Of a stretch of 64,000 bases of DNA, positions 1 through 46,500 are shown piece after piece (position 1 is the first letter of the stretch; every line of letters begins with the position of its first letter). The DNA is from Amphiscolops sp. MND2022. Its lineage: Eukaryota. Location of the stretch: the NCBI GenBank assembly GCA_964187785.1, contig OZ076409.1:49292001-49356000 (forward strand). The letters run 5' to 3'. Under the pieces are notes generated by a model that worked only from the letters and a program-made list of their open reading frames with translations, ran no database searches and was not told where the DNA came from. The position numbers and the translations under genes are program-made.

Positions 1-1050
1 CTACCTCGCCTAATTCTAAACGGGGGTCGCCAGGAGGTTTCGGATAGAATAAGTCGATCGGATATTGTGCTTCTCTCCCGTACAACATCGAAAACGGGGT
101 CGTACCGAGGGTCTTATGTACGGTGGTATTGTACACAAAATTGACGTGGGGCAAGTAGAGATCCCACTCCTGCGGTTTTTCGGCGCAATACTTAGAAATA
201 GTATCGGCAATAACTCTATTGAACCTTTCTACTTGACCATTTCCTTGGGGATGATACGGAGAAGTCCTAGTTTTATCGATCATGAAAACTTGGCAAATAT
301 CTTTCATTACTTCACTGTTGAAGTTAGTTCCTTGATCCGTATGTAAAGTATCGGGAGCCCCAAATTTCAAAATCCACTCTTCGACTAAAGTCGTGGCCAC
401 CGTCTTAGCCGTCATGTCTTTCAAAGGAACGGCAACCGCATACTTTGTATACAAATCGGATATAACTAAAATGTATCGCGCCTGTGACTTTTTCGCTAGC
501 GTTACGGGTCCCAAGATATCTGCTGCAACAATACGAAACGGCGCCTTTGCTTCGATTGTTTGCAAATGAGCTTTTCGACCTTTTCCCGCCGTTGATCTAG
601 CCGCGCAACGCGTGCATTTTGCAATATACTTTTCTACACTTGACCTGAGACCAGGCCACCAAAATCTCTGTTTAATCCTTGATAACGTTTTCTCGGCTGC
701 AAAATGACCTCCGCTAAGAGGGGAGTCATGTAACTGATATAACACTTCGGCTCTCATAGTCGAAGGAACTACTGCCTGCCATATTTCACGTTCACGATTG
801 CTAGGTTTCCATTTTCGATAAAGGACTCGATTGGCCAGCGCTAGCTGATCCCAATCACTCCAAAGTTCTAACGCTTCTGGACAACTCCATCCTAATGCTA
901 CTTCTCTGGGGATGGGGTTGGGCCCTAAATCTTCCAATGTACCATCTATCCGAATTCCACGTCTAACCATTTCACGGAATAGTAATCCCGTACTACGATC
1001 CATTCTCTGACCATACGCTAGGTCGCTATCTGATCTAGTCCATGAGATAT
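1..1050 (-). CDS. pol: pol integrase region (HHCC zinc finger + rve core), open to window edge
   Basis: Manual translation gives LHDSPLSGGHF...RFWWPG...CTRCAAR, ADILGP, LHTDQGTNF and TSPYHPQGNGQVERFNR (D-D-E core). Confidence 0.93.
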
Positions 1051-1179
1051 GCCCCCCCCACTTGCTCTGATATTAACATTTCTTCAGGGGTAACGACGGA
1101 ACAGGCGGAATCTGCACTTGATGAACGCGGGGTACCTCGTCTTGCCGAAGTCGAAGGGTACAATTGCTCTTGGTCTCTC

Positions 1180-1600
1180 GGTGTATACACGGAGATCGTA
1201 AAATACGAATCTTGAAACACAACCTCTAGACAAATAGCTACATTCACCCACTCCAATTCGTCATCGACGCAACCTATTCTAGGCATTGCAAGTTTGGAAA
1301 TTCCATGGGAGCTAGCATGTTCTTTCACTCTCAATAGACTTTCTTTTAATACATCGTATTTGGCAACTTCTCCTTTACAATGCTTGGTGATCAATATGTA
1401 CACATAACGTCCTTTTCAACATCTTGGTACACTAGAAAACCTCCAACACGATTTACCGACTCTGCGAGAGGTGGTAAATGGGAATACTTTTTTACGAACG
1501 ATTTCATGGGAGCAGTGGCTACTCTCATGTCGGCAGATACACACAAAACTAAGGAATCGGGGGATTCGAAAAAATCCCCTTCTCGATAACGGACTACCTC
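1180..1600 (-). CDS. TARG1/OARD1-like (Macro_Poa1p-like) macrodomain inside pol, split by a 1-bp frameshift near 1415
   Basis: VRYREGDFFESPDSLVLCVSADMR...(GRYV)YILITK...YDVLKESL...HGISKLAMPRIGCVDDELEWVNV...VFQDSYFTISVY parallels TARG1 motifs GDLF, SLAHCISED, YYLITK, SMPRIGCGLDRLQW and ITVY. Confidence 0.88.
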
Positions 1601-2683
1601 TCTAGGTGGGTGAGAAATTTGCATTTTCAAATGCCGAGCTACATCCTCTGAGTTTTCCAATTTCTCACGAGCTTTGGTTCGGGCGGCTCTAAGATCGCGT
1701 TCGGCTTCAAACAAAGCACTATCAAATTCGGTGAATTCGGGGATCGGTCCCCTTAACGCATCTTCTTCGCCGGGGAGCCATTGGGGTACGTCATTCGGTC
1801 GTCGACTAAGACCGTCCGCATTGCAATGTTTATCACCTGGACGATGTACTATTTGATAGTCATATTCCTGAAGTTTCTGAACCATTCGAAAAGTCATTCC
1901 ATCCGCATTTTGTCTAAACAACCATTGAAGACTTGCATGATCTGTGCGAATAATACATTTGGATCCGTAAATGTACGGTCTGAACCACTGGACGGCTTGA
2001 ACTACACCTAGCGCTTCTCTTTTGGTTGTTGCATAATTTACCTCCGTTTTAGTTAGAACTCGCGACTCAAAGGCAATTGGATACTCTATCCCATCGATCA
2101 CTTGCGACAAAACTGCGCCGAGCGCCGTATCACTAGCATCGGTATCAATAATGAACGGAAGTTCAAAATTTGGAAATGCCAAAATTGGAGCTTCTAACAA
2201 TCTTTTCTTCAGCGTTCGGAACGCCTTGTCATGTTCTTCGGTCCATGTGAATTTTAATCCTTTGCTCGTCAACAGATAAAGTGGCCTAGCCACTTCCGCG
2301 AAGTTTTGGACAAACTTCCGATAATAGTTGCAGAAGGCAACAAATGAGCGAACTCCGGTGACGTCGGTCGGAGGCTCCCATTCGCGTACTGCCGCTAACT
2401 TTTTCGGATCTGGTTGGATCCCTTCCTTGTTAATCACATGGCCTAGATAGTGGACCTCGGTGCGGAATAAGTTGCATTTCTTCGGTTTAAGACGTAAACC
2501 GGCTTTGCGCAAAACTATAAACACCTTTTCTAAATGCTCCAAATGTTCTTCTGGAGTTTTGCTAAACGTTAGCACATCATCTAGGAATATGAGCACATGT
2601 TTATATAGATCTTCTTTAAAAATGTCGTTCATGTTCCTTTGGAAAGTTGGCGGGGCGTTCGTTAAGCCAAACGGCATTTTCAA
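1391..2683 (-). CDS. pol: pol reverse transcriptase (C-terminal part) + RNase H
   Basis: MPFGLTNAPPTFQR, FLDD catalytic motif, YLGHVI, TDASD, ATTKREAL, TDHASL, NADGLSR. Confidence 0.96.
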   Translation of the reverse strand: MKMPFGLTNAPPTFQRNMNDIFKEDLYKHVLIFLDDVLTFSKTPEEHLEHLEKVFIVLRKAGLRLKPKKCNLFRTEVHYLGHVINKEGIQPDPKKLAAVREWEPPTDVTGVRSFVAFCNYYRKFVQNFAEVARPLYLLTSKGLKFTWTEEHDKAFRTLKKRLLEAPILAFPNFELPFIIDTDASDTALGAVLSQVIDGIEYPIAFESRVLTKTEVNYATTKREALGVVQAVQWFRPYIYGSKCIIRTDHASLQWLFRQNADGMTFRMVQKLQEYDYQIVHRPGDKHCNADGLSRRPNDVPQWLPGEEDALRGPIPEFTEFDSALFEAERDLRAARTKAREKLENSEDVARHLKMQISHPPREVVRYREGDFFESPDSLVLCVSADMRVATAPMKSFVKKYSHLPPLAESVNRVGGFLVYQDVEKDVMCTY

Positions 2684-2687
2684 GCAC

Positions 2688-4085
2688 TCATATAATCCTC
2701 CATCCGGAGTACAAAACGCCGTTTTGTGCCGGTCTTCGGCCGCGACTGGAATCTGCCAATAGCCACTTGCTAAATCGAGAGACGAGAAGACTCCCGCTCT
2801 TGCAGTGCATCAATCGTTTGACCGTCCGGGGCAACGGATACGCGTCCTTTACGGTAAGGTCGTTCAACTTTCGATAATCTATACACATTCGGTTTGAGCC
2901 ATCTTTCTTAGGTACCATTACTATGGGACTGCTGAAAGGACTTTTACTCGGTACGATCACTCCTTTCTCAAGCATCTCGCGAATTTCTTCACGAACGGCT
3001 TCTAATTTATGCGGAGCAATTTTGTAGGGCGAAATTTTGAACGGTTTCGCATCGCCTATGTCTATGCGGTGTTCTACTCCTACAGCGGTTCCTAACGGGT
3101 CTGAAGGCAGTGAAAACACATCTCTGTAATCACGAATCAAATCTCGCAATTTTTCCTTTATTTCGGCGTTCTCGAGTCCAGGGGTGGCTAAATTTAAAAT
3201 TTCGTCAACTTCCTGTTCGAGTTTTTCTTTTATTTCGGAGGTCGCTGATACTGTGTCAGGACCGGGTACCGTTTCGCAAACAAATGCGTCATCTTCCGGC
3301 GGGGGAACATGACCGCTTAGGACTTGCATGGGTACTTTGATGATGAAACCATCATCTTTGGGGATCGTTAATTTTTGTTCGACTAAGTCAGTCGAACATC
3401 GATTTTCCATCATGAACTTTAAGCCAATCATGATCTCAGGGTAGAGATCTTCCACAACCACAAATTCATCGGAAGCGACGCACGTTCCGATTTTAACTTG
3501 TGCTTTTACGATACCTTTGGTAGGCATCTCGTTGGCTATTGGGCCTGTTAAACGACTGGGATTGGGGGCTATTGGGTTACCAATAGTCTTAGCCAATTCC
3601 AAACTCATCAAACTTCTACTCGCACCAGTGTCTATCATGGCCCAACACCGTAGGCTTTCTACTTCATAGGGGATTAAAAGCGTGGCCCCTGGAATGTATT
3701 GACTATGGGTAAGTTTTCTCGATTTTACCTCATCAGACCGGGCCTGATTTGGAAATTCCGGGTCTTTCTTGGACAAAATTTTCACAGAGCCAGGCTCAGC
3801 TTGTTCATCCTCAAAAAGATTTTGTATGGGGGGACTATTTACAACAGGGGTATGGGATTCTTTTGGGAAAAAACCTCCCGGGCCAAACTCATCACACATT
3901 TGTTTCCAAGTTTCGGGGTCGATCCGCCTACTGCGATTGCGCTGTCGCAAACGGCTATCGTTACTCCTAGACCTAGAACGAACACGCTGACTTGTTTGCG
4001 GAAAATTTGTAGCAGCTAGGGAAGGGATGGAATCCCAAGCGCGAGTAGAACCTGCTACTGCATACTCGGCTGTCGGTAGTTTAAA
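2688..4085 (-). CDS. pol: pol aspartic protease + RT N-terminus (entered by -1 frameshift from gag; two 1-bp deletions near 2800-2825)
   Basis: IDTGA protease motif, SPFSSPIVMVPKKDG, CIDYRKLN, DAYPLP. After a frame change the sequence reads SSLDLASGYWQIP and KTAFCTP. Confidence 0.93.
   Translation of the reverse strand, partial: FKLPTAEYAVAGSTRAWDSIPSLAATNFPQTSQRVRSRSRSNDSRLRQRNRSRRIDPETWKQMCDEFGPGGFFPKESHTPVVNSPPIQNLFEDEQAEPGSVKILSKKDPEFPNQARSDEVKSRKLTHSQYIPGATLLIPYEVESLRCWAMIDTGASRSLMSLELAKTIGNPIAPNPSRLTGPIANEMPTKGIVKAQVKIGTCVASDEFVVVEDLYPEIMIGLKFMMENRCSTDLVEQKLTIPKDDGFIIKVPMQVLSGHVPPPEDDAFVCETVPGPDTVSATSEIKEKLEQEVDEILNLATPGLENAEIKEKLRDLIRDYRDVFSLPSDPLGTAVGVEHRIDIGDAKPFKISPYKIAPHKLEAVREEIREMLEKGVIVPSKSPFSSPIVMVPKKDGSNRMCIDYRKLNDLTVKDAYPLPRTVKRLMHCKSGSLLVSRFSKWLLADSSRGRRPAQNGVLYSGWRII
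4030..4085 (-). promoter_or_regulatory. -1 programmed ribosomal frameshift signal (U UUA AAC + downstream stem)
   Basis: TTTAAAC at 4085-4079 near the gag end, followed by a CGAGTA...TACTCG stem. The -1 frame is open into the pol ORF. Confidence 0.8.
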
Positions 4086-5449
4086 GAATTAGACTGCGGA
4101 AGACTTGGACATTGCTTAGCGTAGTGACCTATCGCCTTACAATTAAAACATTCCGCTTCTTCGGGGGGAGGGTGCGAAACATTTAGCTGACCCGACGATC
4201 CTGCCCTATTTAGAGGCGCGCGATAGTTAGGATTGAGAGGGGCTTGAAAATGGGGAGCTTGCCAACTCTGAAGCTGCCCACCAACCGGCCTTTGCGAACT
4301 TCCTAACGCTCCTACGATCGCAGATGACATGTCTTTCATACCCTGCATTAGGATTTCGTTTTGTCTGGTCATCATTTCGACTTGTTTCGAGGAACTTTGT
4401 TCTAAGTTTTTCGTTATTTGATCGGTTTGCTTGGATATCTGCTGGCAGATGGAATTTTCGAATCGATCAAAGCGACTTGCCACATTGGTTAAAGATGTTT
4501 GAAGGACGGCAAATTTTTCTTCGATTTGGTTGTTACTCGAATAGCCAGCTCTCACTAGATCGGGATCCTCATATTCGTCATACGAATAGCGCAATTTATC
4601 AAGTTTCCGCTCTCTTTTTGATTCATGAGTCTTGTGGATTATTTCGAGTTCCTGTGCTCTTTGCAAAGTTTCCCCGAAATCACGTTCACGCTCGTCTTCA
4701 TACAAACTAAGTTGTATTCGTGAATCAAAAAGCCCTTCAATAAATTGATCTCTCATATCGCGTTCTCTTTCCCGGAGCGATTTTTCAGGAAAGGCTATAT
4801 CAGCGAGTTGACGTACTCTTCTCGAGTAGTCTCTTAGGTCTTCGTTTTCCCACTGTTTAACTGCTTTAAATTCCGACCGTGTAGCTCGCTGGCTGCGATA
4901 TTGTTGCATTTTGGGTTTCAAAATTTCAAGTAGTTCATCAAAACGTGGGGGGTAAGAACCGGGTTCTTTTTCAATATATCTTTTGGGGACAGTTTCAAAT
5001 TCTTCAATAGCCCAAGATATTAAACAAGTAGGTATTGCAGCAATTTTTTGACTATCATTCCACCCATTGGCTTTGGCAACTGCTTTGAAGTGTTTTACCC
5101 AATTTTCCCAGCGGTTGTAATCTTTGCTGGGGAACTTTTCTGGTTTTATTGGCGATTTTTCGTACAGGGGTTTTTGTCTTTTTCTAGATTCATTTTCAAG
5201 GACCATGGAGTCGTCAGAATCTAGGTCTGCTTCGATTTTGAATCTTTTAATTTCTTTTTCCATTTCTTTCAATCGCCGATAAGCATCTCTTTTACACTCC
5301 TTTTCCGCGTCGGCCAATCCTACGAAGGAAATTTTAGTGGACTTACTGAGGAGTGGCTTACTACCACCTGTGACGGGAGTATGGGTGCCGTTGGGGTCTT
5401 CTCCGGTGACGGGGGAAATCTGCTGATCGTTGTCGTCGTCTCCAGACAT
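4055..5449 (-). CDS. gag: Gag polyprotein with CCHC zinc knuckle
   Basis: WVKHFKAVAKANGW, RDQFIEGL and CFNCKAIGHYAKQC; uninterrupted ORF with ATG about 95 nt after the PBS. Confidence 0.93.
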   Translation of the reverse strand: MSGDDDNDQQISPVTGEDPNGTHTPVTGGSKPLLSKSTKISFVGLADAEKECKRDAYRRLKEMEKEIKRFKIEADLDSDDSMVLENESRKRQKPLYEKSPIKPEKFPSKDYNRWENWVKHFKAVAKANGWNDSQKIAAIPTCLISWAIEEFETVPKRYIEKEPGSYPPRFDELLEILKPKMQQYRSQRATRSEFKAVKQWENEDLRDYSRRVRQLADIAFPEKSLRERERDMRDQFIEGLFDSRIQLSLYEDERERDFGETLQRAQELEIIHKTHESKRERKLDKLRYSYDEYEDPDLVRAGYSSNNQIEEKFAVLQTSLTNVASRFDRFENSICQQISKQTDQITKNLEQSSSKQVEMMTRQNEILMQGMKDMSSAIVGALGSSQRPVGGQLQSWQAPHFQAPLNPNYRAPLNRAGSSGQLNVSHPPPEEAECFNCKAIGHYAKQCPSLPQSNSLNYRQPSMQ

Positions 5450-5542
5450 CGTCAAGAAGGGTTCAGCGACTCACAAGGGGTGAAGGGAAGGTATGGGAAA
5501 GAAGTAAGCAAAGAAAGAGGAAATAACAAAGACGCAAAGAAA

Positions 5543-5560
5543 GCCCACCCAGGAGCGCCA
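5543..5560 (-). promoter_or_regulatory. Primer binding site, likely tRNA-Asn
   Basis: TGGCGCTCCTGGGTGGGC lies 1 nt after the LTR end TACA. Its complement GCCCACCCAGGAGCGCCA resembles the metazoan tRNA-Asn 3' end. Confidence 0.75.
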
Positions 5561-5561
5561 A

Positions 5562-6260
5562 TGTAAGATTTTTAGTTTTCCAGTAGCTTTAACTATTTGT
5601 TGAGAATAGCTCCACTACAACTCAATTAAACCCGTAGGTACCATGCACGAGACAAGGACTGGCTGAGTATCTACATAAATTTTTATTAACTCCGAAGAAG
5701 AGACGAATCAACTTAATCGAAGGCGGTGGGGGTAAGTGTGACAAGGAAATCACGATCTTTACAACTTTGCTATTTTTCCCTCTTTCAGGGGTTTGTCTCG
5801 CTACTCTTGGACTGTTTGAAATTATCTTTTCGCTGATGAAAAGAAGCAGGTTGAACTTTAATTACTATACATCAAATAAATAAGTCGAGTAATAGACACA
5901 AATACAATTTCACATCCACGAATAATAGAATGAATAATATGATAACATCGATAATAGCGGAGAATATTACTGAGTATATTAGCAGGCATATTAGGAGGCA
6001 TATAACACAAGAGAACAGTAAACAAGAATTTCAGCAAGGTTAAGCTTTTGTATCCGTAAGGATGGGGGTGATATCGAAGATATCGGAAGAGTCAACTCGC
6101 CGCAAAATCTCTATCGGTCTTGGAGTGAAAACAACAATCCGTGTATTATCAGCCCACTTAGGCTTAAACCGTGTATTATCAGCCCACTTAGGCTCAACCG
6201 TGTATTATCAGCCCACTTAGGCTCAACCGTGTATTATCAGCCCACTTAGGCTCTTTTACA
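5562..6260 (-). repeat. 5' LTR (about 700 bp) of the macrodomain Gypsy
   Basis: TGTAA...TTACA termini adjacent to the PBS. The outer boundary is inferred because the partner LTR is outside the window. Confidence 0.7.
6139..6253. repeat. 29-bp tandem repeat x4 within LTR (U3 side)
   Basis: CCGTGTATTATCAGCCCACTTAGGCTCAA repeated head-to-tail without spacers. Confidence 0.95.
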
Positions 6261-6943
6261 TGTAACACGATAGACCAGCAGTCCACCCTACTCCCGGGTC
6301 GAAATCCGTACTAGCGAAAAGCGGGGTAGCAACAAATCAGGCAACTTCAGGTTGTTAGGCTGAAGACACGGGCTAACCGGCCATACGAAGTAAATCTGCA
6401 ATTTCGATAGTCCGGCGTCTGATGCGGGATGCTATCGGACGCAAAGCAGCAAACCGTTCTCTAGATTTCAACTCACTTTGTGTGTCGCTAAAAAGGCGCA
6501 CACTTCGGCCTAAGTTACTTTTTCGGCAGTTTAGTCATATCATTATTCATAGTTTATCATCTTTCCTTTTTCGGGTTCTGACTAAGTGTTGAGCAATACA
6601 GTTTTTTCCTACTTCGGTACTGAAAGTTCATTAGGAGTACATTTTCTCAGCACGAGTTTGTCCTAGTTCCACCTCCTTGTCAATCATGACTGATGGTTTT
6701 ACTTCGTTTTCAATAGAATTTAAGGGGTGGTGCTACTGACTCAGTGTTTCCCACTTTTGTAAGCACGACTTGAACTTCGGCTTACTGATCGACATTTGCA
6801 CCTTTTGCCAGGTCTCTTTTTCTCACGCGGTTCCTGACAACTCTCTCCAGCTAAATCTGGGTGAAGGAAATAATTTTCTACAATTTACAATGACCTAAAA
6901 GGCTATTTCAATTCATATCAAAAAAGTCGAACTTCGTGTTACA
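6261..6943. mobile_element. LTR-like unit (probable solo LTR of another family) directly abutting the Gypsy LTR
   Basis: Perfect 10-bp inverted termini TGTAACACGA...TCGTGTTACA; no TSD visible. Confidence 0.6.
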
Positions 6944-8233
6944 ACTTCTAAGGGCAAAAACAAGGTGTTCCGATCACGGGGGGCAAAAACCAAGTACACC
7001 ATTTAAAAGTACAGATCGTGGGCTACAAAAGTTTACTCCATGGTTTTCTTTCTATTTCAACTCCTTCACAATGAAAAACGCCTTTAAAGTTTGGTAGTCA
7101 AAAATCACCCATCGGTTTTCACGCAAATCTCAACTTTGGAGTGCTAGTACTCAGTCAATTTGAAAGATACAGGCTGGGGGCTTATATACATCGTTAGCCC
7201 AAGCCATTAGGAGTATTTTGCACTTTAGATGAGGTCTCTATCTTTTCTCAACAAAATTTGATAGTACTTTTTCTGAAAGTAGTCATTTTCCCGATTTTTA
7301 TGTCTGGACTTTCAACTTTGGAGGCCAATATCTCGAAACCAGGGCATTTTTCGGAAAAACGCTTCTGCTAAACGCTGTGCGCCTGGGTCTTGTGCGTCTA
7401 CCCTGAAAATTTCAGCTCGATATCGCCCAAAACGTGCGGGGGGGTTCGCATTTTGGTAGGTCGACATCCCTATCGGCTGAAAGAAATCACAACTTTAAAT
7501 TCTTGGGGGTTCTTCGCTAGCGCACCGCAGCACTCTATTTATTATTCTATTCACTCCTCCACTTCAATTCTCAAGTACGCTGTGAAGGGGGCGGCTATTG
7601 TGCGCTTACACGTTGAGTACTACGCGATAACATGCTAAAAACGGCTTTTTAGGCCATTTTAGGGCTGTTTTTAACGTTTGCTGGCTCAGTTCTCAAAAAC
7701 TACTGAATATTATTTATTTTCCAATTAACACAAGTTAGGGCATCCATTTATCTTTAATTTAAGCCATATCCGAACAATTTCTGACAACTGTAGCGATCAC
7801 ACGAAATTTTTAAACGAAACTCAATTTTGGAAAATCGTCAAAATTTTATATGCACTTATTTTTAAAGCGTCTCCCCGATATGTTCCCGGGGTTGCACAAC
7901 GCTCATATTCTCAACTTAAGCTCTCCTTTGGATGGGCTTTTGAATGCTGAAAACCGTTTGTTGCTATCTTTTTTCATCTCCGAGAAATCGGGTTTTGATT
8001 TTTAATTTCTATTAAGAGGGGGGATTAATTCAAAGTGTGCGGCGGCCGTTTTCTTATTAGCTACGCGTACAGCCACTCACAGCGCGTTCTAATTTTCATT
8101 CCTTTCGCTTTCTGACACGCTTAGGTGAGTTGCATTCAATGCTTATACCGCGTACTGTGAAGTTTCACTCTCGCATACCCTCAAATACACGTATTAACAT
8201 AGCGATTTTGACTAAATTCTACATACCGTGAAA

Positions 8234-9184
8234 ATGGCTTCATCTTCTAATTCTCGATCTTTAAAGTACAAAACTGATTACTCAACACGTAGTCAGAGTG
8301 TGGTTGACCGTATGAATGACATTTACAACACTTTTAATGCTAATAACACTGTTTCTGACTTTACTATAATTCATGAACTTTGGCCCCGTTTCCCCACTAT
8401 TTCCCCTGTTAATTTTAATTCTATTTCTCCCCCGCAGCCTTGCATTCTTGCCGGCGTTAATGTTCAGCCTAGGGGCATTTTAAAACAGCTTTCTGATAAA
8501 CCTGATTTAGTTTGGGCTGATTTTGAGAACATTCCTGATTATCCTTTAATTAATATTACAAAAGGCCCGGAGTATTCTGTAACTCGCGAATTTATTAATT
8601 TTATGCAAGGGGATATGGACTTTGCTAATTGTCTTACGTCTTTTTCATTTCTTGATCAAATTGTAACTAGCTGTATAGGTTTATTAGTACAGGGCCCTTG
8701 GTTTTCGTCTGCGCATATTGAAGTTGGAGGAGGCGCTTCTTATGCACTTCTGCATACGGGAATCAAAATATGGTGTGCGACCACCACTAATAGTTCTTCT
8801 CGTTTGTTAGAACGTTGCTGCAATAATGCAAATAACTTCATTGATTTCGTTCAAAGGGGGCCACGGGACAAGGAGGCTAATTATTTAAGATTTACTATTC
8901 AGCGGCCGGGGGATTTAATTTACGTTCCTAGTTTGCGGCCTCACGCCGTCCTCACCCTAGACACAGGTAAGCCTACTATTTTATCGGGGTGGGACGCGTC
9001 TACCATTGCTGATTCAACCATCATTACTCGGACACTGGATGAGTACATCATAGGAGTTCGACGTGGCACCTGGAGGAAGATTTTACGGACACAGGGCAGA
9101 GAGGCACTACGAAATTGGGTATTTACTCCCGCAAAGGGCCCTCAAGCATCTAAAGAGAATTTACGCAAACACTGGACTTATTGA
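8234..9184 (+). CDS. Intronless JmjC-domain (2OG/Fe(II) oxygenase) protein
   Basis: FSSAHIEVGGGASYALLHTGIKIW and FTIQRPGDLIYVPSLRPHAVLT give an HxE...K...H set like KDM2/7 and JMJD6 motifs; AATAAA near 9294. Confidence 0.85.
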   Translation: MASSSNSRSLKYKTDYSTRSQSVVDRMNDIYNTFNANNTVSDFTIIHELWPRFPTISPVNFNSISPPQPCILAGVNVQPRGILKQLSDKPDLVWADFENIPDYPLINITKGPEYSVTREFINFMQGDMDFANCLTSFSFLDQIVTSCIGLLVQGPWFSSAHIEVGGGASYALLHTGIKIWCATTTNSSSRLLERCCNNANNFIDFVQRGPRDKEANYLRFTIQRPGDLIYVPSLRPHAVLTLDTGKPTILSGWDASTIADSTIITRTLDEYIIGVRRGTWRKILRTQGREALRNWVFTPAKGPQASKENLRKHWTY

Positions 9185-9854
9185 GAGACTTATTGTCCGC
9201 ACTTACTTTCTAAATTATCTGTTTGATTCTTTTGTTTAATTAGTCGATAACACCCCCGGTTCGTTTTCATAACCTTGCTGAGTAATTAATTTAAATAAAC
9301 TTCTTTACTATACATACGAAAAAGGTCAAAAATCCTACACAGGCAAACTAAAAGTTTGACAAAAGTTACTACTTTTACTGGAACAACACTTTTCTATGTA
9401 TTTGTGAAGATATTACGCTCACTTCATTTTCTGACTTTTCGATGCAAGTTTTGAATGATTTTTGATTGCATGTTGCTAAAATTATTCAAGGCAGAAAAAA
9501 ATTCCGGTGCATAGTAGTATCTTGTATATCAAGATGCCAGTTTTGAATTATTATTACCTCTCATGTGCAGTGTGAGGTTTCTCAATATATACGAGTTTCT
9601 CACCTGCTTGGCGTTTTTCCTCTCGTCTACTTTTGACAAAATTCCACCACTTGGCAGCTGCCCACGCACTTAGCTCCAGTTCCCTTAATTCTAATGTTGT
9701 TCTTGCGTTGTGCAACTAAAAAAAATCACTAAACTGTTTATACTCTGAAACCCAAATCTTCAGTTGCTTTTCATATTTCATGCCTTCCAGTCAGATCGTT
9801 TACAGCAGAACCAATCTTTACTCCCATTTAAATTCTTGTAATGAGAATTGACTG

Positions 9855-10385
9855 AAACAAGCCGGCAACGGCATAAGGCTCAAAAACAGCAAAAGAATTT
9901 CAAAGCGTAAAAGATTTTCTTTTGAATAAATTCTCGATTCCACAGTACCAAAAAACCCAAAGGGTGACCCTTTTGGGCCCCATAAGGGCTTTTTTTGCTC
10001 TCAGCCGCACGAAAAATATATCTATTTATCAAGGCAAATTATTTTATCAAGGCTTCTATCAGAAATTTATTATTTTTTATCAACTTTTTTTTCCAAAACT
10101 ACCAAAAACCAAAATGGGAACCTTGTGATAAATAAAAGAGTTTCCGAAAAACAGTCTCAAAGTAGCAAAAAAACGCCAAAAAAACAACCCTCAATGCTTC
10201 ATTGTATTCAAATAATTCTGTCAAAATTTGAAAGGGAGGCTCCCTACGAACAATGTTCTAGTTTTAGGAGTTTCGTGAAAATTTGGCATTCGGCATGAAA
10301 TGGTCAGTTCGACCGGAATGAAAAAAAATTGCTACGAAAATTCATAGTAGTCGCGTTTTATTTCATAAAGCGCCAACTAAAAATA
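9855..10385 (-). mobile_element. Helentron/DINE-1-like non-autonomous element, family A
   Basis: AAACAAGCCGGCAACGGC at one end and TAGTCGCG...GCGCCAACTAAAAA at the other, shared with other copies. Confidence 0.6.
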
Positions 10386-10481
10386 AAATGAACATGATCC
10401 TAAAATTTTCCGAAAATCCGGAACTTCTTGAGAACAATTTTTCAGGAATTTTCATAATGCTTGTTATTGACTGATTTGAAA

Positions 10482-11064
10482 TCAACTAACAATGTTATCG
10501 TTCGTTGTATCATCTCCTGGAAAGTCATCATCAAAGAAAAGTTCATTTGCAGCACTCTGAAGGTTGTCATTTTTGTTGATGATGCCAATTTCGTCTTCTA
10601 TAACACAAAAAGACAAGTCAGTAAAATCGACCTTGTAATAACAGTTTTCCCAATAAGGTTCCTGTCGAAAGTTGAACTTACCGGTAACATCGAGATTCTT
10701 ATGACTCAGATCTTCCACCGACTGAGTGCCAATAGATCTCTTTCTTTCCTTATTAGGAAGATTCTCACTCAAAGTCTTCAAGATCTGTGCCAACTCAGGA
10801 CTGGTCTGGTTATTGGCGGCTGGCATTCCTCCATAATAGGGCATAAAGATAATCTGCGGAGTGGAATTTTGTCCTGGAATCTGGTTGAATGCTCCTGGAT
10901 TCATTGTTTGGGGGTTGAAGGAATAGGGTGACATAGGATTGCCCATTTGAGAAACTTGATTTGAGAGGTTGTTCGGAGATCCAGATCCATAGGAGGTGGG
11001 GCTGAACTGGGGAAAATTGTTGTTTGGAGTGAAAATTGGCTGAAGGTCTCCACATCCTCTGCAC
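10482..11064 (-). CDS. Probable terminal coding exon of a host gene (P/N/Q-rich, acidic C-terminus), function unknown
   Basis: Acceptor TATTTTAG|G at 11064, then an open frame CRGCGDLQPIFTPNN...MGNPMSPY...FFDDDFPGDDTTNDNIVS*. Confidence 0.5.
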
Positions 11065-30279: not shown

Positions 30280-33200
30280 ATGGCCGAGGAGGAATCAAGG
30301 GATAGAGATCAAGGCAGAGATGATCAGCCACAACGAGAACAGCAGCAACAGGGATGTTATGATTTATTCTGTTGACAAAACCCTCAAGTCCAAACGAATA
30401 ACCCGATCATTTTGAATTTTTTTGGTTTATCAAAGAACCTGAGAAAAAGAGGACACGAACACGAAAAAGGCTCTAATTTTGGATATATATAAAAGATTTT
30501 AAGAAGAAGAAAACAGCTATTTTAATGTCTGCAGAAACATCTATTTTCAGTATCCCTGCATCATATAAATGAATGGCATATGCAATTTATTTATATGCTG
30601 CAGGGGTGCTGAAGATAGATAGAGCCTTATGGAGCCTTAAAAATAAGATTACTTTTGTTTTTGTTGGTCTTAATGCAAAATGAAACCAAAACGTTTTCTC
30701 CAAATGTATTCTGAGAACATTGACACATCATTTTTTGTCTATGAGGTTAATTTCTCTCAGTTTTTTTGATGACGTCAAATGATATCTCTGTAACGATGCC
30801 AGAGGGGAGGACCTAGAGATTCTGAGCACAAAGAGGAAGAGGAAGGGGGAGAGAAGCAACAGCAGCAGTCGACCCAGGACTCAGTCAAGAAGCAGTGTGA
30901 CGTCTGTGGAAAAAAATTCAAGGAACTCAACTACTGTGTCCACTGTGCCATCTCTGTCTGCCTGGGATGCAGGTCGGTTAATTAACAGTAATGCTGTAAT
31001 TAATGCATTAACAATTAATACTGTAGTTAACTGCAACACTATTTTTTTAGCTATTAGTAGTTAACTTCTTTCGTTTGCTAGACAAATTCTTGAGAAGTAA
31101 TTCAACTTGAATTTGATATTTTGATAGCATCAACACTGATTTCGTGTTTTACAGATGAAAAAAGAAAAAATTGAAGCAGTCAAAATTTCTCCATGTTAAC
31201 GGATTTTCATGAAACGACATGTGATTCCAGAACTCATTTTAATAATGGTCGCCATTTTCATACATGTATTTGCAAATAACCTAGGTTCCTTGTACATTTA
31301 TACGGTTAATTAAATGATTTCAATTTCCCTTGTTCCCTTTCCAAAATTGCTTCCATGTTTAGTGTGTTAATCGATGCTTTTTCATAGCTTCTCGTTGGAA
31401 ACCTTTTTCGGCATTGAAAAATCCATTATCAATGTAAGTCAAAGATTCTTCAAAAACAATAATAAAGATTACTTAGCTCAATTTAAATATAAAATTAGCG
31501 ACTTCCACCGTACGGCGACAACTCATATCAAGCGACAACTCATATCAAGCGACAACTCATATCAGGCGACAACTCATATCAATTTGGAAAAGCGACAACT
31601 CATATCAAGCGATAACTCATATCAATCAAAACTCATGTCAGAAAATTTATTCCAAATAATTCAGGATATAATTAGAGAAAATTAAAATAATTGATAAATA
31701 ATTGTTAAAAATAATAATAAAAATAACAATAATAATAATAATTGAATTTATCTGGTGACACATAATTGAGATACAAATATCAAATCAAGTTACAATAAAA
31801 ATACACCAGAAAAGACTCCCAAAGGGTTTACGCCCGCTGGAAGGGAGCCTTAGCGAATTAAAAACAACAGAGTGTATGATTAACAAGATTAATCATACTG
31901 ACTAAACCTATAGTCAAATGAGAAAATTCTAAGACAACAATGAAAAAAAAACGAGACGGAAGAAAAGTATCGGAAAGAGAACAGAAAAATACCTTCAGTA
32001 CTTGACATTTGCTTCATCGGCAGTGGACGAGCTAAGCCCTAGTATCTAAAGCGATTCAACTCCCAACCAACTAAAACGTACAGAGATATTTCGGGAAAAA
32101 CGTCAAAAAAAGGTGAAAAAATCCGAACTCAGAGCGACTTAATACATCATTTTGGTGAAATTTGCCGATGCAACCCCCCTCTACTTACAGCGGAATGTGC
32201 CATGTAAACCTCAGAGAGGCTTACATAGAGGACATGGACCGTCTAACTGAGACCATGCAGGGGGAAGCATCGGCATTTAGTGGGATACTCATTGGTTAAC
32301 CCATGAATATTCCACTAATGCATTCTTTTCCAAAAATGGGAAAACTACAATAAATATAAGGTGGAGAATGATAATAGCACGGTCAATTAAAGCATTAAAA
32401 GAGGGTAGCTAAGAAGTAAACTGAAAAAATGTGAAGGATATTAAAGAAAAATCCTTTAGCTTGTAGGTAGGCAATCATATGATCAAAAAGGTTCCAAGCT
32501 CCTGAGCACAGCAGAGAAGAGGCTTTATTTGAGTCCACTTTGGGGACTTCATTGCTTGGCTTTCCAGCTTCACGTTCACTGTTAGCAGGGGAAGCTTCAC
32601 TGAAGTTCATAAACAAACCTGACAATCTCCATATTCCCGATTAAATAGCTTCTGAGGAACCTATGACACAACACTTTGAGCGCGTCTTCAGACAAGTTTT
32701 CGAGGTCATCATTTTCCGGTAAAACACACCAATGCTTAAGTTTGTTATAAAACCTAGGGACACGTATTGAGAGCGACTGTCGATACATTTTATTGTAGGA
32801 GACAGGTTCGATCGCGAGCTCGAGTTTCTTATTCCTCAAGTGGTAATCGCTTTGGGATACAGGTTTGAGGATGTCGTTGAGGACTTGGACAGGATGACCA
32901 GTTGATAGCGAGGCCACTATGAACTTGAACAGTTCATAGACATGGAATTCATGAACGGTAGGAAGTTCATTTTTTATCATTAGAGAGTCAACGCTTGCAA
33001 ATTTCTCAAGGAAGAACATAGTTCACAAAATTTTCTTTTGTAATGTATACATAGGGCTGAGAATGGAATAAGACGTACAGCCGTATATCAGAGCACCATA
33101 TTGGATGAGTGGATTCACATGTAATTTATAGTAAACCAGTACTTGAGATTTGGTCAGAAGATCGCGAGAACGCCTAACAGTATGATGGCAAAAATTCAAC

Positions 33201-36200
33201 TTCTGTTTGATTTTAGCTACATGATCTTTGAAGCAGAGAGAATCGTCAATAATAACACCCAAATACTTCAGATTATGCTTCATTTCAATCACCAGTGAGC
33301 CCAAGTGCAAATCAGATTCTGATGACTTGTCAAAGATTATGGCTTTCGATTTGTCCAGGTTGCATTTCAGCTTATTAGAGTTCATCCAATTGTCGACTTT
33401 TGAGATGGTTTCAGTCAGTGTATCTTGGTTGCCGTTTACTACTTTTTCAAAAATATTTGTGTCGTCTGCAAATATTGTAATATTAGAGTTCGCGACATCA
33501 GGTAGATCATTGATGTAGAGGAGAAATAGCAGAGGTCCAAGAACTGACCCTTGTGGAAAACCACAAGCTACCGATCATAAAGAAAATTTATGGTTCTCAA
33601 CTTGTAGAAACTGATAGCGATTCTGTAAGAAGGAAGACAATAGGGAGAAGATAGGGCCCCGGAAACCAGATCGATGGAGTTTATCAAATAGGATTTTATG
33701 GTCAAGAGTGTCAAATGCTTTTCTCAAATCAAGGAAAACGCAGACCGAAGGAATTTTCAAAAACCTAGCGTGTCTCACTTCTTCGACCACACAAGCCAGA
33801 GCGTCGATGGTTTTGCGTTTTTTACGAAAACCGAATTAACTATCGTTGAGGATTTTGAATTGATCGATGAATTTTATCATTCTCGTGTAAATTATGCGTT
33901 TCATTACTTTACCGAAAACTGGTAACAAAGAAATTGGGCGGTAATTAGAGAAATCTTCTTTATTGCCCTCTTTATAGATGGGAACCACCTTAGCTACTTT
34001 TAGGAGATCGGGGAAGCAACCCTGCTGTAAACAGCGATTTATGAGAATGGTCAAAGGTCCAATCAACGAATTTGTGCTCATTTTCAAGAGCTAGGAACTT
34101 ACACCATCAGGACCGGATGATGTTTTACCTTTCATTTCATTCAATACCTTCTGGATTTCAAGCTCATCTGTTTGTCGCAGAAACATAGATTGTAAATGAC
34201 AAGGGATGTTTGAGATCCGAGTGTTTGATTGAATGGTATTATGGAGAGCTGGACCGATGTTAACAAAAAAGTCATTGAAACTGTCAACGTTGGCCTGACT
34301 CATGATTGTTGGAAAAATGGGTCTTTGCATTTTACCAATAACTTTATTGAGGTTTTTATGAAAACTTTTGCTATCATGCGCACATTCTGGGAAAGATGAC
34401 TGAACGAATTCCTTTTTTCGGTTTTTGAGGTGCGTTTTAACATAATTTCTGTAATGTACAAAGGTGTCGCGTTTAATTTCGTCATTTTTGCTGCGGCAAT
34501 ACTCAAGATAGAGCTGGTCACGTTTAATAATAAGTCTTTTGCACTTATTATCTAACCAGGGTTTAGTATTGATCACTATTGTTTTTTCAGGTGCGACTTT
34601 GTCAGCAGCCGTAATGACAATTTGTATCAATTTATTGAAACCATCTTCAAGATTGACCAATTCCCAATTGGTTTGACAACAAAGGTAATTTAGCAGGGAA
34701 AAGTATTCGCGTTGTTGGCATTCAATGTTCTTGTAATTTCTATACGAACACGTGTTTTTGGAAGCAATAAAACAGTCTCAAATCTGGTCCAAACAAAAAA
34801 GTGATCAGTTATAGTCGAATGATATACTTTTCTCGTTGACATTGGTAAATTACTGTAAATATGATCTATGCAAGACTTGGAATCTCTTTGCTGTCTTGTG
34901 ATATCAAGAGGACTGCATAATTTCAGAGTATGACTCGACATGATATCCAACAATTCGATGGAGTATTTCGTTTGTTTCAGAAGATGTATGTTAAAATCGC
35001 CCATGATTATTATATTCCTGCCATTTTCGCACACTCTTAGGCACTCTTCGGCCAACAATTCTAGATACTTAGGTTCTTTGATTTTCAAATGACATCTGTA
35101 TGTTACGCCAACAAATAGTTTATTAGGAGATAAAATTTCAACAAGAAGCCATTCACGAACTGTGTCATTCAGTGCAACACGATAGCTGATGTTTTTGTCT
35201 AACCATAAAGCTACACCGCCTCTTTCACCGAAAGAGCAATTACAATCTATCAATTCATGATAACCTTTGAGATCAAATTTCTTCAGATCACTGCTATCAT
35301 TAAGCCATGTTTCAGTTGCACCAATGATACTAGGTTTTATATTCTCATTCGCCAAGAAGGCTTCGAGTTCAACGAAATGGCTGTTTAAGCATCTTACGTT
35401 AGCATTCAGGACGTTCACTTTCCAAAATTGGCTGCCCTCATTAAGAAACTTAATGGTCTGATTCATTCGAGGGTAAGAGTTCGTTGTTATTCCGAAAACT
35501 ACCAGTTGCAATCGGCGTTTCTTGGGGATTCAGATTGTTTTTATTCACTGGTGATTTGCTGTAAAGATGGACCAATAAGCTATCTAGCTCATTATTGTCT
35601 TTACAAGCACGAATTTTTCGCATAAAGTTCTTCTCGAGACATTGGCGGGTCAATATTTTCCAGAGGTCTTTTTGGCATTCGTTGAACTCCTTTGAACAAA
35701 AGGGTTGGAGGAGGGTTTTGGATTTTGCGGTCGAAGGCCATGGAAGACTTAGGCTTTGAACGTTTTTTGATCGCCTTGTCAGCCAGATCGTCGATTTGTT
35801 TCGTGCTTCTCGCTTCAATATGTTGTTTTTGCCCATTCCCGGCATCTACCAGCACGTTCACTGCACAATTGTTGGTAACTGTCATGAGATTTTTTGAAAC
35901 TGCATATTTCTGGAGGGCTCTATCGTGCGGAGGCAGTCTTTCGTTGATGAAGACTGGTTCATTATTGTTGGGATTGCGATAACGTTTCAATAACTTCTTG
36001 TTCAGCCACGATGTTAAAAATTATTGTTGAAACTGTCAACGTTGGCCTGACTCATGATTGTTGGAAAAATGGGTCTTTGCATTTTACCAATAACTTTATT
36101 GAGGTTTTTATGAAAACTTTTGCTATCATGCGCACATTCTGGGAAAGATGACTGAACGAATTCCTTTTTTCGGTTTTTGAGGTGCGTTTTAACATAATTT

Positions 36201-39200
36201 CTGTAATGTACAAAGGTGTCGCGTTTAATTTCGTCATTTTTGCTGCGGCAATACTCAAGATAGAGCTGGTCACGTTTAATAATAAGTCTTTTGCACTTAT
36301 TATCTAACCAGGGTTTAGTATTGATCACTATTGTTTTTTCAGGTGCGACTTTGTCAGCAGCCGTAATGACAATTTGTATCAATTTATTGAAACCATCTTC
36401 AAGATTGACCAATTCCCAATTGGTTTGACAACAAAGGTAATTTAGCAGGGAAAAGTATTCGCGTTGTTGGCATTCAATGTTCTTGTAATTTCTATACGAA
36501 CACGTGTTTTTGGAAGCAATAAAACAGTCTCAAATCTGGTCCAAACAAAAAAGTGATCAGTTATAGTCGAATGATATACTTTTCTCGTTGACATTGGTAA
36601 ATTACTGTAAATATGATCTATGCAAGACTTGGAATCTCTTTGCTGTCTTGTGATATCAAGAGGACTGCATAATTTCAGAGTATGACTCGACATGATATCC
36701 AACAATTCGATGGAGTATTTCGTTTGTTTCAGAAGATGTATGTTAAAATCGCCCATGATTATTATATTCCTGCCATTTTCGCACACTCTTAGGCACTCTT
36801 CGGCCAACAATTCTAGATACTTAGGTTCTTTGATTTTCAAATGACATCTGTATGTTACGCCAACAAATAGTTTATTAGGAGATAAAATTTCAACAAGAAG
36901 CCATTCACGAACTGTGTCATTCAGTGCAACACGATAGCTGATGTTTTTGTCTAACCATAAAGCTACACCGCCTCTTTCGCCGAAAGAGCAATTACAATCT
37001 ATCAATTCATGATAACCTTTGAGATCAAATTTCTTCAGATCACTGCTATCATTGAGCCATGTTTCAGTTGCACCAATGATACTAGGTTTTATATTCTCAT
37101 TCGCCAAGAAGGCTTCGAGTTCAACGAAATGGCTGTTTAAGCATCTTACGTTAGCATTCAGGACGTTCACTTTCCAAAATTGGCTGCCCTCATTAAGAAA
37201 CTTAATGGTCTGATTCATTCGAGGGTAAGAGTTCGTTGTTATTCCGAAAACTACCAGTTGCAATCGGCGTTTCTTGGGGATTCAGATTGTTTTTATTCAC
37301 TGGTGATTTGCTGTAAAGATGGACCAATAAGCTATCTAGCTCATTATTGTCTTTACAAGCACGAATTTTTCGCATAAAGTTCTTCTCGAGACATTGGCGG
37401 GTCAATATTTTCCAGAGGTCTTTTTGGCATTCGTTGAACTCCTTTGAACAAAAGGGTTGGAGGAGGGTTTTGGATTTTGCGGTCGAAGGCCATGGAAGAC
37501 TTAGGCTTTGAACGTTTTTTGATCGCCTTGTCAGCCAGATCGTCGATTTGTTTCGTGCTTCTCGCTTCAATATGTTGTTTTTGCCCATTCCCGGCATCTA
37601 CCAGCACGTTCACTGCACAATTGTTGGTAACTGTCATGAGATTTTTTGAAACTGCATATTTCTGGAGGGCTCTATTGTGCGGAGGCAGTCTTTCGTTGAT
37701 GAAGACTGGTTTATATTGTTGGGATTGCGATAACGTTTCAATAACTTCTTGTTCAGCCACGATGTTAAAAATTATAAAATAGAAACAAGATTTCATTGTA
37801 AATTCAGTGTAACTTTAGTATTTCTGATTGCAGTTAATTATAAGTTGTTCTTGAGGTAAAATTTAGGTATTTGTAACCTATTGGCAATTTGATATGAGTT
37901 GTCGCTTTTTGAAATTGATATGAGTTGTCGCCTGATATGAGTTGTCGCTATGCCACTTCCACTAATCATCATACTAAATTAGTATTGAATCCTAGCAAAA
38001 AAGAATTAGCTGAAAACAATCTTACATTCAACATCTACATATATGGCAACATCTACATACATGGCAACATATATGGCTACATATATGGCATCTATACAAA
38101 ACAAAAATGGCAACATTTTCTCCAGAACGTGAGAAGTTCTTACCGTTGCGTCTTCTTAACATGGAAACCGATGTTGGAAATTGTAAATTTCAAATGTTGC
38201 AATAGTTTTTCGTGTTCTCAGATCATCACATTGTGAAGATTTAATAGAAGAGTACGAACAGGCAAAGGGTAAGGCTAACGATATCAAACGACAAGTTACC
38301 AAGAAGATCGCCGAGGTTCAACACAATTTGGACGAAATTACCAGATCTTACAACACGAGGTAGGAGGATTCATGTCTTTTGAACTGATCCGGAAAAGATC
38401 CGCTAATTTAAATGCTCGCCGCTTCAAGGAGATGTGAAAACTTGAAGTAAAAAAGTTACTGTTTTTTAGTCGGCGTCTTTTCCTTTAGGTAAAAAGCCCG
38501 ACTATTACAGTGACTAGTTTTTTTCGTCAGACAACAGAATGTATGCGTAGTGGATTTACGGAACTACTAAACTACTGGAACGGCAACCGGAAACGCATCT
38601 AAGTTAGTGCTAAGGGTCCCCCCTTTCATTTACTCCATTCTTAACGTAAGATACAAAACCGGACAAGTCGATAGGGTCCTTCTTCGATTTTTTTGGCACT
38701 CTTTTCTTTCGAATTTTTTGTCTCTAAAGAGTCCCTCTCAATTTTGTTGATATTCAAAGTTCCAAAAGCCCAAAAGGTCCCCTTTTTACAATTTTAAAAA
38801 GTTTGCGCTTTTTGAGTCTTAAATATAACGCCGATTTTAGACGTTCTCGTCTTGTTTTGATGAACGGACACTCATTTCACGGTTGTTTCACAAATGTTTA
38901 AAATAACTTGATTGAGGACATGTTGTCAGTTTAGCTTTTCAACGTGGACTGCAGCGGAATATCAATTAAAACCCGTTTCGAAATTCCCTTGTCTTCAATT
39001 TTTTCACGGCCCAGTCGAAACTGCCGGAATTTTTACATGCTGCATGGAAGCATGCAGTGAAACTTGAAAAAAAAACAGAAAATTCAGCATTTATGCATGG
39101 AAAAACCTCATCAAAGTTTCCTACACTTGGAAAAGTCTGACTGCAACTCACTGTCGAAGAAAAGTTCATGCAGCTTTCAAAACATTTGTGGTAAAGACTC

Positions 39201-43539: not shown

Positions 43540-46500
43540 TGGCGCAGTAAGCAAGATTTTTAAAACAAACCGAAAATTTTAACCAGAACTATGGCAGAAA
43601 AAACATTGTACCAAACCTAGAAGCAAAGGCATCAGACGGAAACCCAATATTTATCCCGAGACAATGGTTGGAGAGATTTAGACAGTTTACCAAACGAGAA
43701 CACAAAATTGACATTACACCATTAGTAAAAGGGGAACATATCACAGAACCCGGATGGACCACCGAAAAAGAAGCACAAATCCAAGAAGACTTTATCTGGG
43801 GAGTGGGACCGGAAGCTTTGTACCAGATAACCCGGGCCGAGTACAAAACGGAACCGGACAGTATAAAAATCAAAGACCTAATCCGGTTATATACCGAACA
43901 CTACCTCCCAAAACGAAACACATATCATAATAGAGGAGACTTCTTTTGGGCGAAACAATCGGAGAATGAAACACCTGAAGAGTTCTGGAGACGACTGATC
44001 GAAATAGAAAAAGAATGCAATTTCGGAACCATCTCAGCCGAAGAACTATTAATATCCAAATACATGACAGCGATTACAGACAAGAAGTTACGGGACAAGC
44101 TAATGAAAGAAAAGACCCTAGAGATGAAGAAAACAATCAAAATGATTAAACAAAACACATACGAAAAGAAAAACAAGAAAAATACAATACCCGAAGCATT
44201 AATCACAACAAAATAAAAGCAGATAATCAAAGAAGAACCAATACAGAGAATGGAGAAATTCGGAACCAAATCGAAAACGAGAACAAGGGGAACCCGAACA
44301 TGCAGATTTTGCAACGCACCAAACTGGAACCCAACACACAAGTGCCCAGCATTAGAATCAAAATGTAACAACTGCGGAAAGAAAGGACACTACGCACGGG
44401 CATGCAAACAAAGAACAAAGAACAACTGAACACTGAGAAAACTTACCGAAGAAGAAGAAACTGAACCGAACGAATCGATGAGTGAATCCGATGAAAGCAT
44501 ATATCACATAGAAGAAATAAAGAACATCGTAGAACAACAGAAACATTACACGGCAAAAATAAAGATAAACGGAACACCAAAAGAATTTATCATTGATACC
44601 CGATCACCGGTGACCATAATGCCATTAGACGAACAAATCATGAAGAAGACCGAAATACAGAAAATAACAAACCGATACCAAGATGTAAACAAGAACGAAG
44701 TAAAATTCCAGGGGAAAATACCGGTAAACATAGAATACGAAAATAACAATAAAAAATGGAAATACTAATTACAGAAAGAGCGGACATAACACCCTTACTG
44801 GGGATGGACTGGATGAAAAAATTCAAGCTGACAGTCCGTAAAATACAATTGGCCGAAACCGGCCAATCAGAAAAGGAGAGAATAATTAACAAGTTCCCGG
44901 ACCTATTTGAAAACAACCGGACAATAAAAGATACCGAAATAAACGTACAACTGAAGCCCGGACACCACCCGGTGAAACAAAAAGCAAAACCGATCCCACT
45001 ACACCTGCAAGAAGATGTAGGGCGGGAATTAGAAAAATTAATAAAAGCCCGACATTTAGACAAAGTAAATAATGTGGATGGAGACTGCTTCGTATCACCG
45101 GTAGTAATAACGGTAAAGAAGGACAAATCGGTGAAAATAGCATTGGACTCCCGAAAATTAAACGATAGCTGCAATAAACGGAGACCACATATGCCGAATA
45201 TGGAGGAATTGCTAAACCAAATATCGGTGGAAATTACACGAGACCGAACACTATAATTATTCATTTCAAAGATTAACTTAGATTGCGCATACAGACAAAT
45301 GAAATTATCCGAAGAGACAAGCTGACAATGCGTAATCGCAATCACCGGAGCGAAATTCAGCGGATACTACAGATTTAAAAAAGGGTTTTACGGACTCGAC
45401 GATATTCCCACAATTTTCCAGGAGAAAATAGACCGAACACTGGAATATAGCACACCGGCATGGTTAGATGACAATATAGTAGTAACACGCGGAAGTAGAC
45501 AAGAACACGAGAAAAAACTATTTGATGTTTTGTCTAAACTCGAAAAAGCCGGGTACCGGGCGAGCAAAAGGAAATCGGAAATTTTCCTAAAACAGACAAA
45601 ATGGTTGGGACACGAAATTGACGAATCCGGGATAAAGCCGAATGAGGAGAAGGTTGAAGCGATACAAAAATTGAAATCACCGAACAATACAAAAGAATTG
45701 AAATCTTTCCTCGGCGCAATACAATATTTAGCAAAACTCCTACCGAAACTATCGGAAAAGACAGTTAGATTGAGAAAATTACTGAAGAAGAATGAACCAT
45801 GGATATAATTTCAAACAAATAAAACAAATGCTGACCAAAAAACCATGCTTAGCACATTTTGCAAAAGATAAAGATAACATGGTAACGACAGACGCGAGCA
45901 AAACCGGTCTCGGCATTACGCTTTGGCAAAAACAAGACGACGGGGAATTGAAACCAATCGCATTCGATAGTAGATATTTAAACGACACCGAAAAGAACTA
46001 CTCAATCGGCGAATTCGAATTAATAGCAGTAGTTTGGGGATTGGAAAAATTCCGTTTCTATCTGTACGGAAAAAAGGTACACCTATACACGGATCATCAA
46101 GCATTAGAACTTCTAATAAAAAGGAACCGAAGCAACCATCAATACGCACAAGATCAATCAAAGCGCAAGATTAACTAGATGGTTAGATCGGCTGGCACAT
46201 TTTGATATCGCAGTTCAACATATTGCCGGCAGCAATTTGAAATTCACCGACTATCTCAGCAGAAATCCGGTAGGGGGAGCACCGACAGAAGACAAATACG
46301 ACGAAGAATATGTCATTAACATATTAACCGAGCACGCGGAATTGAACGCAAAATATGGTTCGCTAATCGACAGCCAATCAGATTACAGCAAACAAGATAC
46401 CGAGACAAAACGGAATACATCCGAGAGCGAAAATGAGAAAAAGAACGACCAATCACACGCAAACAGAATATTCCAGAACAAAGGCCACGTGAACAAAATT

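Follow-up and report, generated by a model that had tools for sequence, protein, structure and literature searches.

Macro domains occur in some non-LTR elements, and viral macrodomains counter PARP defence. In LTR retroelements, macro domains are known from fish: epsilon-like endogenous retroviruses of ray-finned species carry them (Basta et al. 2009, cited in the available part of PMC4977317). A macrodomain in an LTR retroelement is thus already known, and what is new in the locus described here is the variant in Ty3/Gypsy Pol. A literature search of titles and abstract openings gave no Gypsy Pol described as carrying a TARG1-type domain; its reach did not extend to most subscription journals or to Repbase, and a prior mention is quite possible. 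Enzymes have become part of Pol in other cases: dUTPase was captured by retroviruses and some LTR retrotransposons (available part of PMC5408684), and the retroviral tether (connection) domain is a one-time enzyme that was retained in Pol after the loss of its activity (available part of PMC12440569).

The ADP-ribose pocket of TARG1 is formed by residues D20, I44, H32, C33, S35, T83, K84, D125, and the GxG loop, and TARG1 proteins are defined by the pattern TKx(30,35)Px[IL]GxGxD, in which GxG is the diphosphate loop (according to the available text of PMC6397177). The human TARG1 variants G43E, I44E, and G123E each lose ADP-ribose binding and catalysis, yet they fold, and G43E and G123E retain RNA binding (available text of PMC5928194). 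TARG1-like genes are found in many viruses, of which few keep all the essential residues, as far as the available part of PMC4245714 reports.

The window analysed here is a stretch of 64,000 nucleotides from Amphiscolops sp. MND2022 (contig OZ076409.1, positions 49,292,001 to 49,356,000). Its first 10.6 kb contain, on the minus strand, the 5' part of an LTR retroelement, with LTR, primer-binding site, gag, and pol. The order of the encoded domains is gag with a zinc knuckle, protease, reverse transcriptase (RT), RNase H, macrodomain, integrase zinc finger, and integrase core (Table 1). The element has the Ty3/Gypsy (Metaviridae) order of protease-RT-RNase H-integrase with gag upstream, and both of its LTRs and the tRNA primer-binding site are present. 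Its length is at least 20.2 kb. Over 5.0 kb its LTRs share 99.5% identity, and therefore the insertion is recent. The outer end of the 5' LTR is probably truncated, since neither a TG end nor a target-site duplication is seen. The heptamer in the gag/pol overlap is presumably of the slippery type. The 3' part of tRNA-Asn has 379 matches in the genome; it forms a long tandem array (G000:C7 near 47.64-47.69 Mb), which contains most of the matches among those listed.

Table 1 Features of the element and of related loci. Positions refer to the window unless a locus is named.
Feature	Position	Strand	Remark
Integrase core	1..544	-	PF00665 E 1.5e-12; extends beyond window start
Integrase H2C2 zinc finger	593..769	-	PF17921 E 3.7e-21
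Variable linker and N-terminal region before integrase zinc finger	770..1181	-	frame break near 1055
TARG1/OARD1-type macrodomain, pocket loops altered	1182..1600	-	frame break near 1415 in window copy
Loop 3 GCVDD, aligned to human TARG1 G121-D125	1260..1274	-	G123 replaced by Val, D125 kept
Lys (of ITK) aligned to catalytic K84 of human TARG1	1383..1385	-	
Loop 1 VATAPM, aligned to human TARG1 M40-A45	1505..1522	-	G41, G43, I44, A45 replaced
Linker, RNase H to macrodomain	1601..1800	-	from sequence
RNase H	1801..2245	-	PF17919 E 4.7e-35, PF17917 E 5.7e-32
Reverse transcriptase, limits approximate	2432..2915	-	PF00078; frame break near 2800-2820
Aspartic protease	3411..3671	-	PF13650 E 1.5e-7
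Putative slippery-type heptamer in gag/pol overlap	4079..4085	-	from sequence; -1 ribosomal frameshift inferred
gag frame with CCHC zinc knuckle	4055..5470	-	PF00098 E 1.6e-5
Primer-binding site, 3' end of host tRNA-Asn(GTT)	5543..5560	-	two of three loci called tRNA-Asn
5' LTR, at least 5.0 kb	5562..10561	-	99.5% identical to 3' LTR beyond window
JmjC-like reading frame within LTR, antisense to pol	8216..9184	+	same frame in other LTR, L021 1016-1984
RNase H-integrase slot, canonical pocket residues	L057, L058		
RNase H-integrase slot, altered pocket	L060		
Protease-RT slot, canonical pocket residues	L056, L066		
After integrase, canonical pocket residues	L054, L059; L062, L063, L065		L054, L059 single frame; L062, L063, L065 broken copies
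gag-protease-macro frames, canonical pocket residues	L055, L064; L067		no RT match in 10 kb fetched; L067 similar but broken
Stand-alone 315-aa frame ending in canonical TARG1-like domain	L061 4557-5501	-	

The domain between RNase H and integrase is a TARG1/OARD1-type macrodomain located inside Pol. It was noticed in a preliminary description of the window, which placed it at positions 1035-1700; that interval contains the domain, but the core of about 140 residues occupies only 1182-1600 and the remainder is linker. The domain from a natural sister copy (P0002) matches five human TARG1 chains over its full length with E-values from 7e-22 to 1e-21 (phmmer), and the next match has an E-value of only 1.2. 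The structure of the domain was predicted by AlphaFold2 with a pLDDT of 87.9 from a 42-row alignment that included three canonical TARG1-like rows. The fold comparison rests on this alignment-based model, as the single-sequence model has a pLDDT of 46. Human TARG1 occupies Foldseek ranks 1-8 (best TM 0.80/0.87), and Atlas places the domain among Macro/OARD1 clusters (0.93-0.94). The Pfam Macro score of 17.2 bits is below the cut-off of 22. The preliminary description had called the domain TARG1/DarG-like. TARG1 is the closer of the two, and a DarG origin is rejected: a five-sequence profile matches TARG1 at 3e-25 and a DarG chain at 0.11, and DarG appears in Foldseek at rank 10. A chance match as the source of the TARG1 likeness is likewise rejected.

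Pol was proposed to continue in frame from RNase H through the macrodomain into integrase. This is not the case in the window copy, in which pol is broken near 2800-2820 (RT), 1415 (macrodomain, the position at which a frameshift had been noted), and 1055 (before integrase). Because of these breaks, sister copies were used for the study of the domain. A DNA search of the host genome (1.07 Gb) yielded 235 candidates, of which 40 were scored, all with an identity of 97-100%. RNase H, macrodomain, and integrase zinc finger follow one another without interruption in 14 of the 20 sister loci fetched, as had been proposed. A protein search of the genome gave 1047 candidates; the best 150 have identities of 92-100%, and 144 have no stop in the domain, a set biased toward intact copies because the best candidates were scored first. 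The domain is therefore family-wide, and a one-off insertion is rejected. The genome contains three subfamilies: A, to which the focal element belongs, B, which is approximately 80% identical to A in the domain, and C, which is 59% identical. Relatives in databases hold the domain at the same position in Pol, down to identities of about 51-58%. The database protein P0007 matches the focal genome at 100%. P0009 and P0011 match it at 60-62% identity only and are thus probably from other genomes.

The residues of the ADP-ribose pocket were scored in 134 of 163 collected proteins, namely those with most of the domain present: 55 from the focal clade and 79 other TARG1-like proteins obtained in the same searches. 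The 55 clade proteins go back to about six families, in part from the focal genome itself, so they are not independent and the effective sample is small. The Gly-rich loops were correctly described as changed, and the changes fall on G43, I44, and G123. None of the 55 clade proteins keeps G123 (V in 49, I in 5, A in 1), G43, H32, or I44, the last of which is replaced by Pro in 47. In contrast, G123 and G43 are each kept in 76 of the 79 other proteins, and H32 in 77. The TARG1 pattern is matched by 0/55 clade proteins versus 42/79 of the others. The clade mostly keeps K84 (45/55), D125 (51/55), T83 (44/55), S35 (49/55), and C33 (49/55). The catalytic Lys and Asp equivalents are both present in the window copy, as are the quoted motifs VATAPM, ITK, and GCVDD, and each of the two residues is found in all 19 family A copies that are readable at its position. 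However, all four near-identical, open-frame copies of the young family C have Arg at K84. The adenine contact D20 varies over six subfamilies (D, D, H, I, N, and E); P0010 carries Val in place of T83, and P0007 and P0009 carry Ala or Pro in place of S35. The motif VATAPM is common to 18 of 20 family A copies, and decay of individual copies is therefore rejected as the cause of the loop changes. The residues V123, D124, P44, and M45, which replace those of TARG1, are themselves conserved in 47-52 of the 55 proteins. In the macrodomain tree the focal clade is on a long stem of 1.6-1.9 changes per site.

It is probable, if by little, that the TARG1-derived domain of Pol has lost the binding and removal of ADP-ribose, since its pocket residues are replaced throughout the lineage, and that it functions as a folded module, with a structural or an adaptor role, next to RT/RNase H or integrase. 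An ancestor of the element would have captured an intact TARG1-like eraser of the kind that other families in the genome still carry, and the focal clade would have retained the fold after the loss of the pocket. Provided that a -1 frameshift yields Pol and that Pol is packaged, the domain would accompany the reverse-transcription complex. The substitutions in the clade are mostly Val, Ala, Ser, and Pro and not the Glu tested in human TARG1, and binding may survive; Glu occurs at position 43 in eight of the 55 clade proteins. The domain has a pI of 5.0-7.8 in 11 clade members versus 8.0-10.2 in 16 of 18 others, and this neutral-to-acidic character speaks against RNA binding by a basic surface like that of TARG1.

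The same residue counts also fit an enzyme with a changed substrate. In this unlikely alternative, the Lys/Asp pair would react with a ribose carbon of a substrate that lacks the ADP portion, such as a cDNA or RNA end that is damaged or blocked, and the loops would have been rebuilt. We know of no substrate of this kind, and a literature search joining TARG1 with abasic sites and Schiff base gave no match. The retention of most of K84, D125, T83, S35, and C33 while the contacts to adenine and diphosphate changed, together with the conservation of the new loop residues, agrees with such an enzyme. In TARG1, K84 reacts with ribose C1'', and the mechanisms of ALC1-class macrodomains are diverse (available parts of PMC7050489 and PMC9967889). 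The Arg at K84 in family C and the substitutions of T83 and S35 in P0010, P0007, and P0009 argue against it.

TARG1-like domains with canonical pockets are present elsewhere in the same genome. A search with a canonical domain gave 940 candidates, of which 150 were scored. Fourteen loci (L054-L067) were chosen by frame length, 13 from this search and one from another genome search. Canonical pocket residues are seen in domains in the RNase H-integrase slot (two loci), in the protease-RT slot (two), after integrase (five), in gag-protease frames with no RT nearby (three), and in one stand-alone frame (Table 1). The RTs of the macrodomain-bearing LTR families are far apart in an RT tree built without named reference elements. 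The deep branches of the macrodomain tree are long and weakly supported, and they are compatible with several captures or with moves of one domain. A single origin of the altered and canonical domains of the RNase H-integrase slot is not rejected (p-AU 0.25), and independent capture of the two is not supported by this test. A further Gypsy Pol (P0082 from Logan, 1639 aa) has a TARG1-like domain between protease and RT and keeps G43, K84, G123, and D125. The N-terminal parts of pol in L054 and L059 have weak dUTPase matches below the cut-off (E 0.028 and 0.0026), and these families also carry a macrodomain after integrase. Among 163 viral-contig loci carrying a TARG1-like gene, the best 80 contain no Gypsy RT, RNase H, protease, or integrase in the fetched flanks. 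The stand-alone frame of L061 has one match at E 1e-60 among 132 scored, and no RT, RNase H, protease, or integrase match is found in 24 kb at this locus; it may be a single-copy host TARG1 gene.

The preliminary description had considered the focal domain to be an eraser or reader of ADP-ribose. This role is doubtful for the focal lineage, given the clade-wide replacement of G43, I44, and G123 and the Arg at K84 in family C. It is improbable that the domain has kept the ability to bind or remove ADP-ribose and thereby shields the RNA, cDNA, or proteins of the element from PARP marks of the host, or guides integration. The complete catalytic pair in readable family A copies is consistent with a working domain, as is the full pocket kept at the same Pol position in L057 and L058, for which a common origin with the focal domain is compatible with the tree test. 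However, each of the three residues that binding is known to require is replaced, and the sequence departs from the pattern that defines TARG1. The remaining LTR families of the genome agree better with an eraser role, because their pocket residues are kept; judged from these residues, removal of ADP-ribose is a plausible and natural prediction for the canonical families.

The macrodomain is under purifying selection, which is weaker than that on RT. The comparison of 14 A with 7 B copies gives a dN/dS of 0.035 for the domain (bootstrap 0.02-0.09; 286 of 500 replicates usable), with a dN of 0.118 and a pS of 0.74, which is near saturation. The dN/dS within A is 0.14 (0.06-0.31), a value lowered because only A copies with open frames were picked; these copies were also selected for their similarity to the query. 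Relative to family C the ratio is undefined due to saturated synonymous sites. The dN of RT (0.034) is about one third of that of the domain (0.118), and the constraint on the domain about equals that on the zinc finger and on the linker downstream of the domain. The dN/dS values of this linker, 0.046 and 0.22, are similar to those of the domain, so the selection is not domain-specific. The examination of family copies called for earlier thus showed a family-wide domain with a dN/dS of about 0.04-0.14, and a fold match, presence in other copies, and non-neutral evolution were all found. It is very unlikely that the domain is a passenger relic without a role, in which selection merely keeps a folded spacer harmless to Pol processing: its dN/dS resembles that of the adjacent linker and its dN exceeds that of RT, but it is full length and nearly gap-free across families to 52-59% identity with synonymous sites saturated, and the conserved residues include those of surface loops and not those of the core alone.

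Beyond pol, the focal element contains additional reading frames. Just beyond the window start, pol is followed by a 759-aa env-like frame (L021 4614-6893, minus strand) and a 321-aa frame without a Pfam match (L021 3451-4416, minus strand). The 759-aa frame has a basic RxxR site and a C-terminal hydrophobic helix but no Pfam match of its own. It matches a frame of L058 at E 9e-41, which in turn matches Baculo_F at E 3.6e-5, just under the cut-off. The 759-aa frame is thereby a candidate for an F-type fusion glycoprotein like that of env-bearing, errantivirus-like Gypsy elements. Two sister copies (on C4 and C10), with LTRs of approximately 2.6 kb, lack both the 759-aa and the 321-aa frames. 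The JmjC-like frame in the LTR scores below the cut-off for Pfam JmjC (E 0.002) and has an Atlas score of 0.97 to JmjC clusters. It has 127 genome matches from 124 scored candidates and is present at both ends of family C elements with 56-57% identity. Relative to two copies at 82-83% identity its dN/dS is approximately 0.11-0.12, which indicates purifying selection. The motif HxE...K...H, which we take to be that of JmjC proteins, is kept in three of four copies checked. A distant antisense JmjC-like frame is located at L054 5845-6744.

A wider reading of the genome, which we regard as possible rather than probable, is that Gypsy-type retroelements have repeatedly used TARG1-type erasers as an accessory module, inserted like dUTPase in several Pol slots because the host would attach ADP-ribose to their cDNA, RNA, or proteins. 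The focal clade would then represent a later turn with a rebuilt pocket, and together with the JmjC-like dioxygenase gene of the LTR, the domain would form a small de-modification kit. These elements bear on the question whether hosts turn ADP-ribose against retrotransposons. The genome provides matched test material, since young, high-copy families carry canonical and rebuilt pockets at the same position of Pol, and the likely single-copy host gene L061 may serve as a control alongside them. Removal of ADP-ribose from DNA or protein by the canonical domains would suggest that LTR elements face a host defence based on this modification. A focal domain that is inactive but conserved would be a retroelement-captured enzyme turning into a structural part.

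The remainder of the window contains other repeats. A second, fragmented LTR-type element at 43551-48420 on the plus strand has gag-, RT-, and integrase-like frames recognized by eye. Fragmented LINE-like frames with a 1.77-kb tandem duplication are located at 33023-37814 on the minus strand, and positions 50004-57394 contain a tandem duplication of 3.7 kb (99.5%) with a frame for a BED zinc finger.

Among described proteins, human TARG1 (also OARD1 or C6orf130), an ALC1-like macrodomain hydrolase (PDB 4J5Q, 4J5R, 4J5S, and 2L8R), has the same fold and length as the focal domain. The two are 33-37% identical in structural alignment, with TM 0.75-0.80, and share the equivalents of K84, D125, T83, S35, and C33. 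However, the focal domain is fused into a retroelement Pol, its residues corresponding to H32, G41, G43, I44, A45, G123, and L124 are replaced, and it is neutral to acidic whereas human TARG1 is basic. The macrodomain of the antitoxin DarG (PDB 5M31, 5M3E, and 5M3I) belongs to the same macrodomain class and has an equivalent catalytic Lys, but it is only 17-18% identical to the focal domain, its Foldseek E-value is about 1e-7 compared with 1e-14 for TARG1, and the focal element contains no toxin partner. The macro domains of fish endogenous retroviruses likewise reside in LTR retroelements, but, as far as the citing paper describes them, those elements belong to the Retroviridae, whereas the focal element is of the Ty3/Gypsy type. 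Retroviral dUTPase is positioned in the same three slots as the macrodomains found here (available part of PMC5408684); it is a different enzyme with a known role, whereas the macrodomain of the focal element has an altered pocket and a putative role. The retroviral tether offers a possible analogy for an enzyme that persists in Pol after its activity is gone, with the difference that the tether is derived from RNase H and the focal domain is a captured macrodomain.
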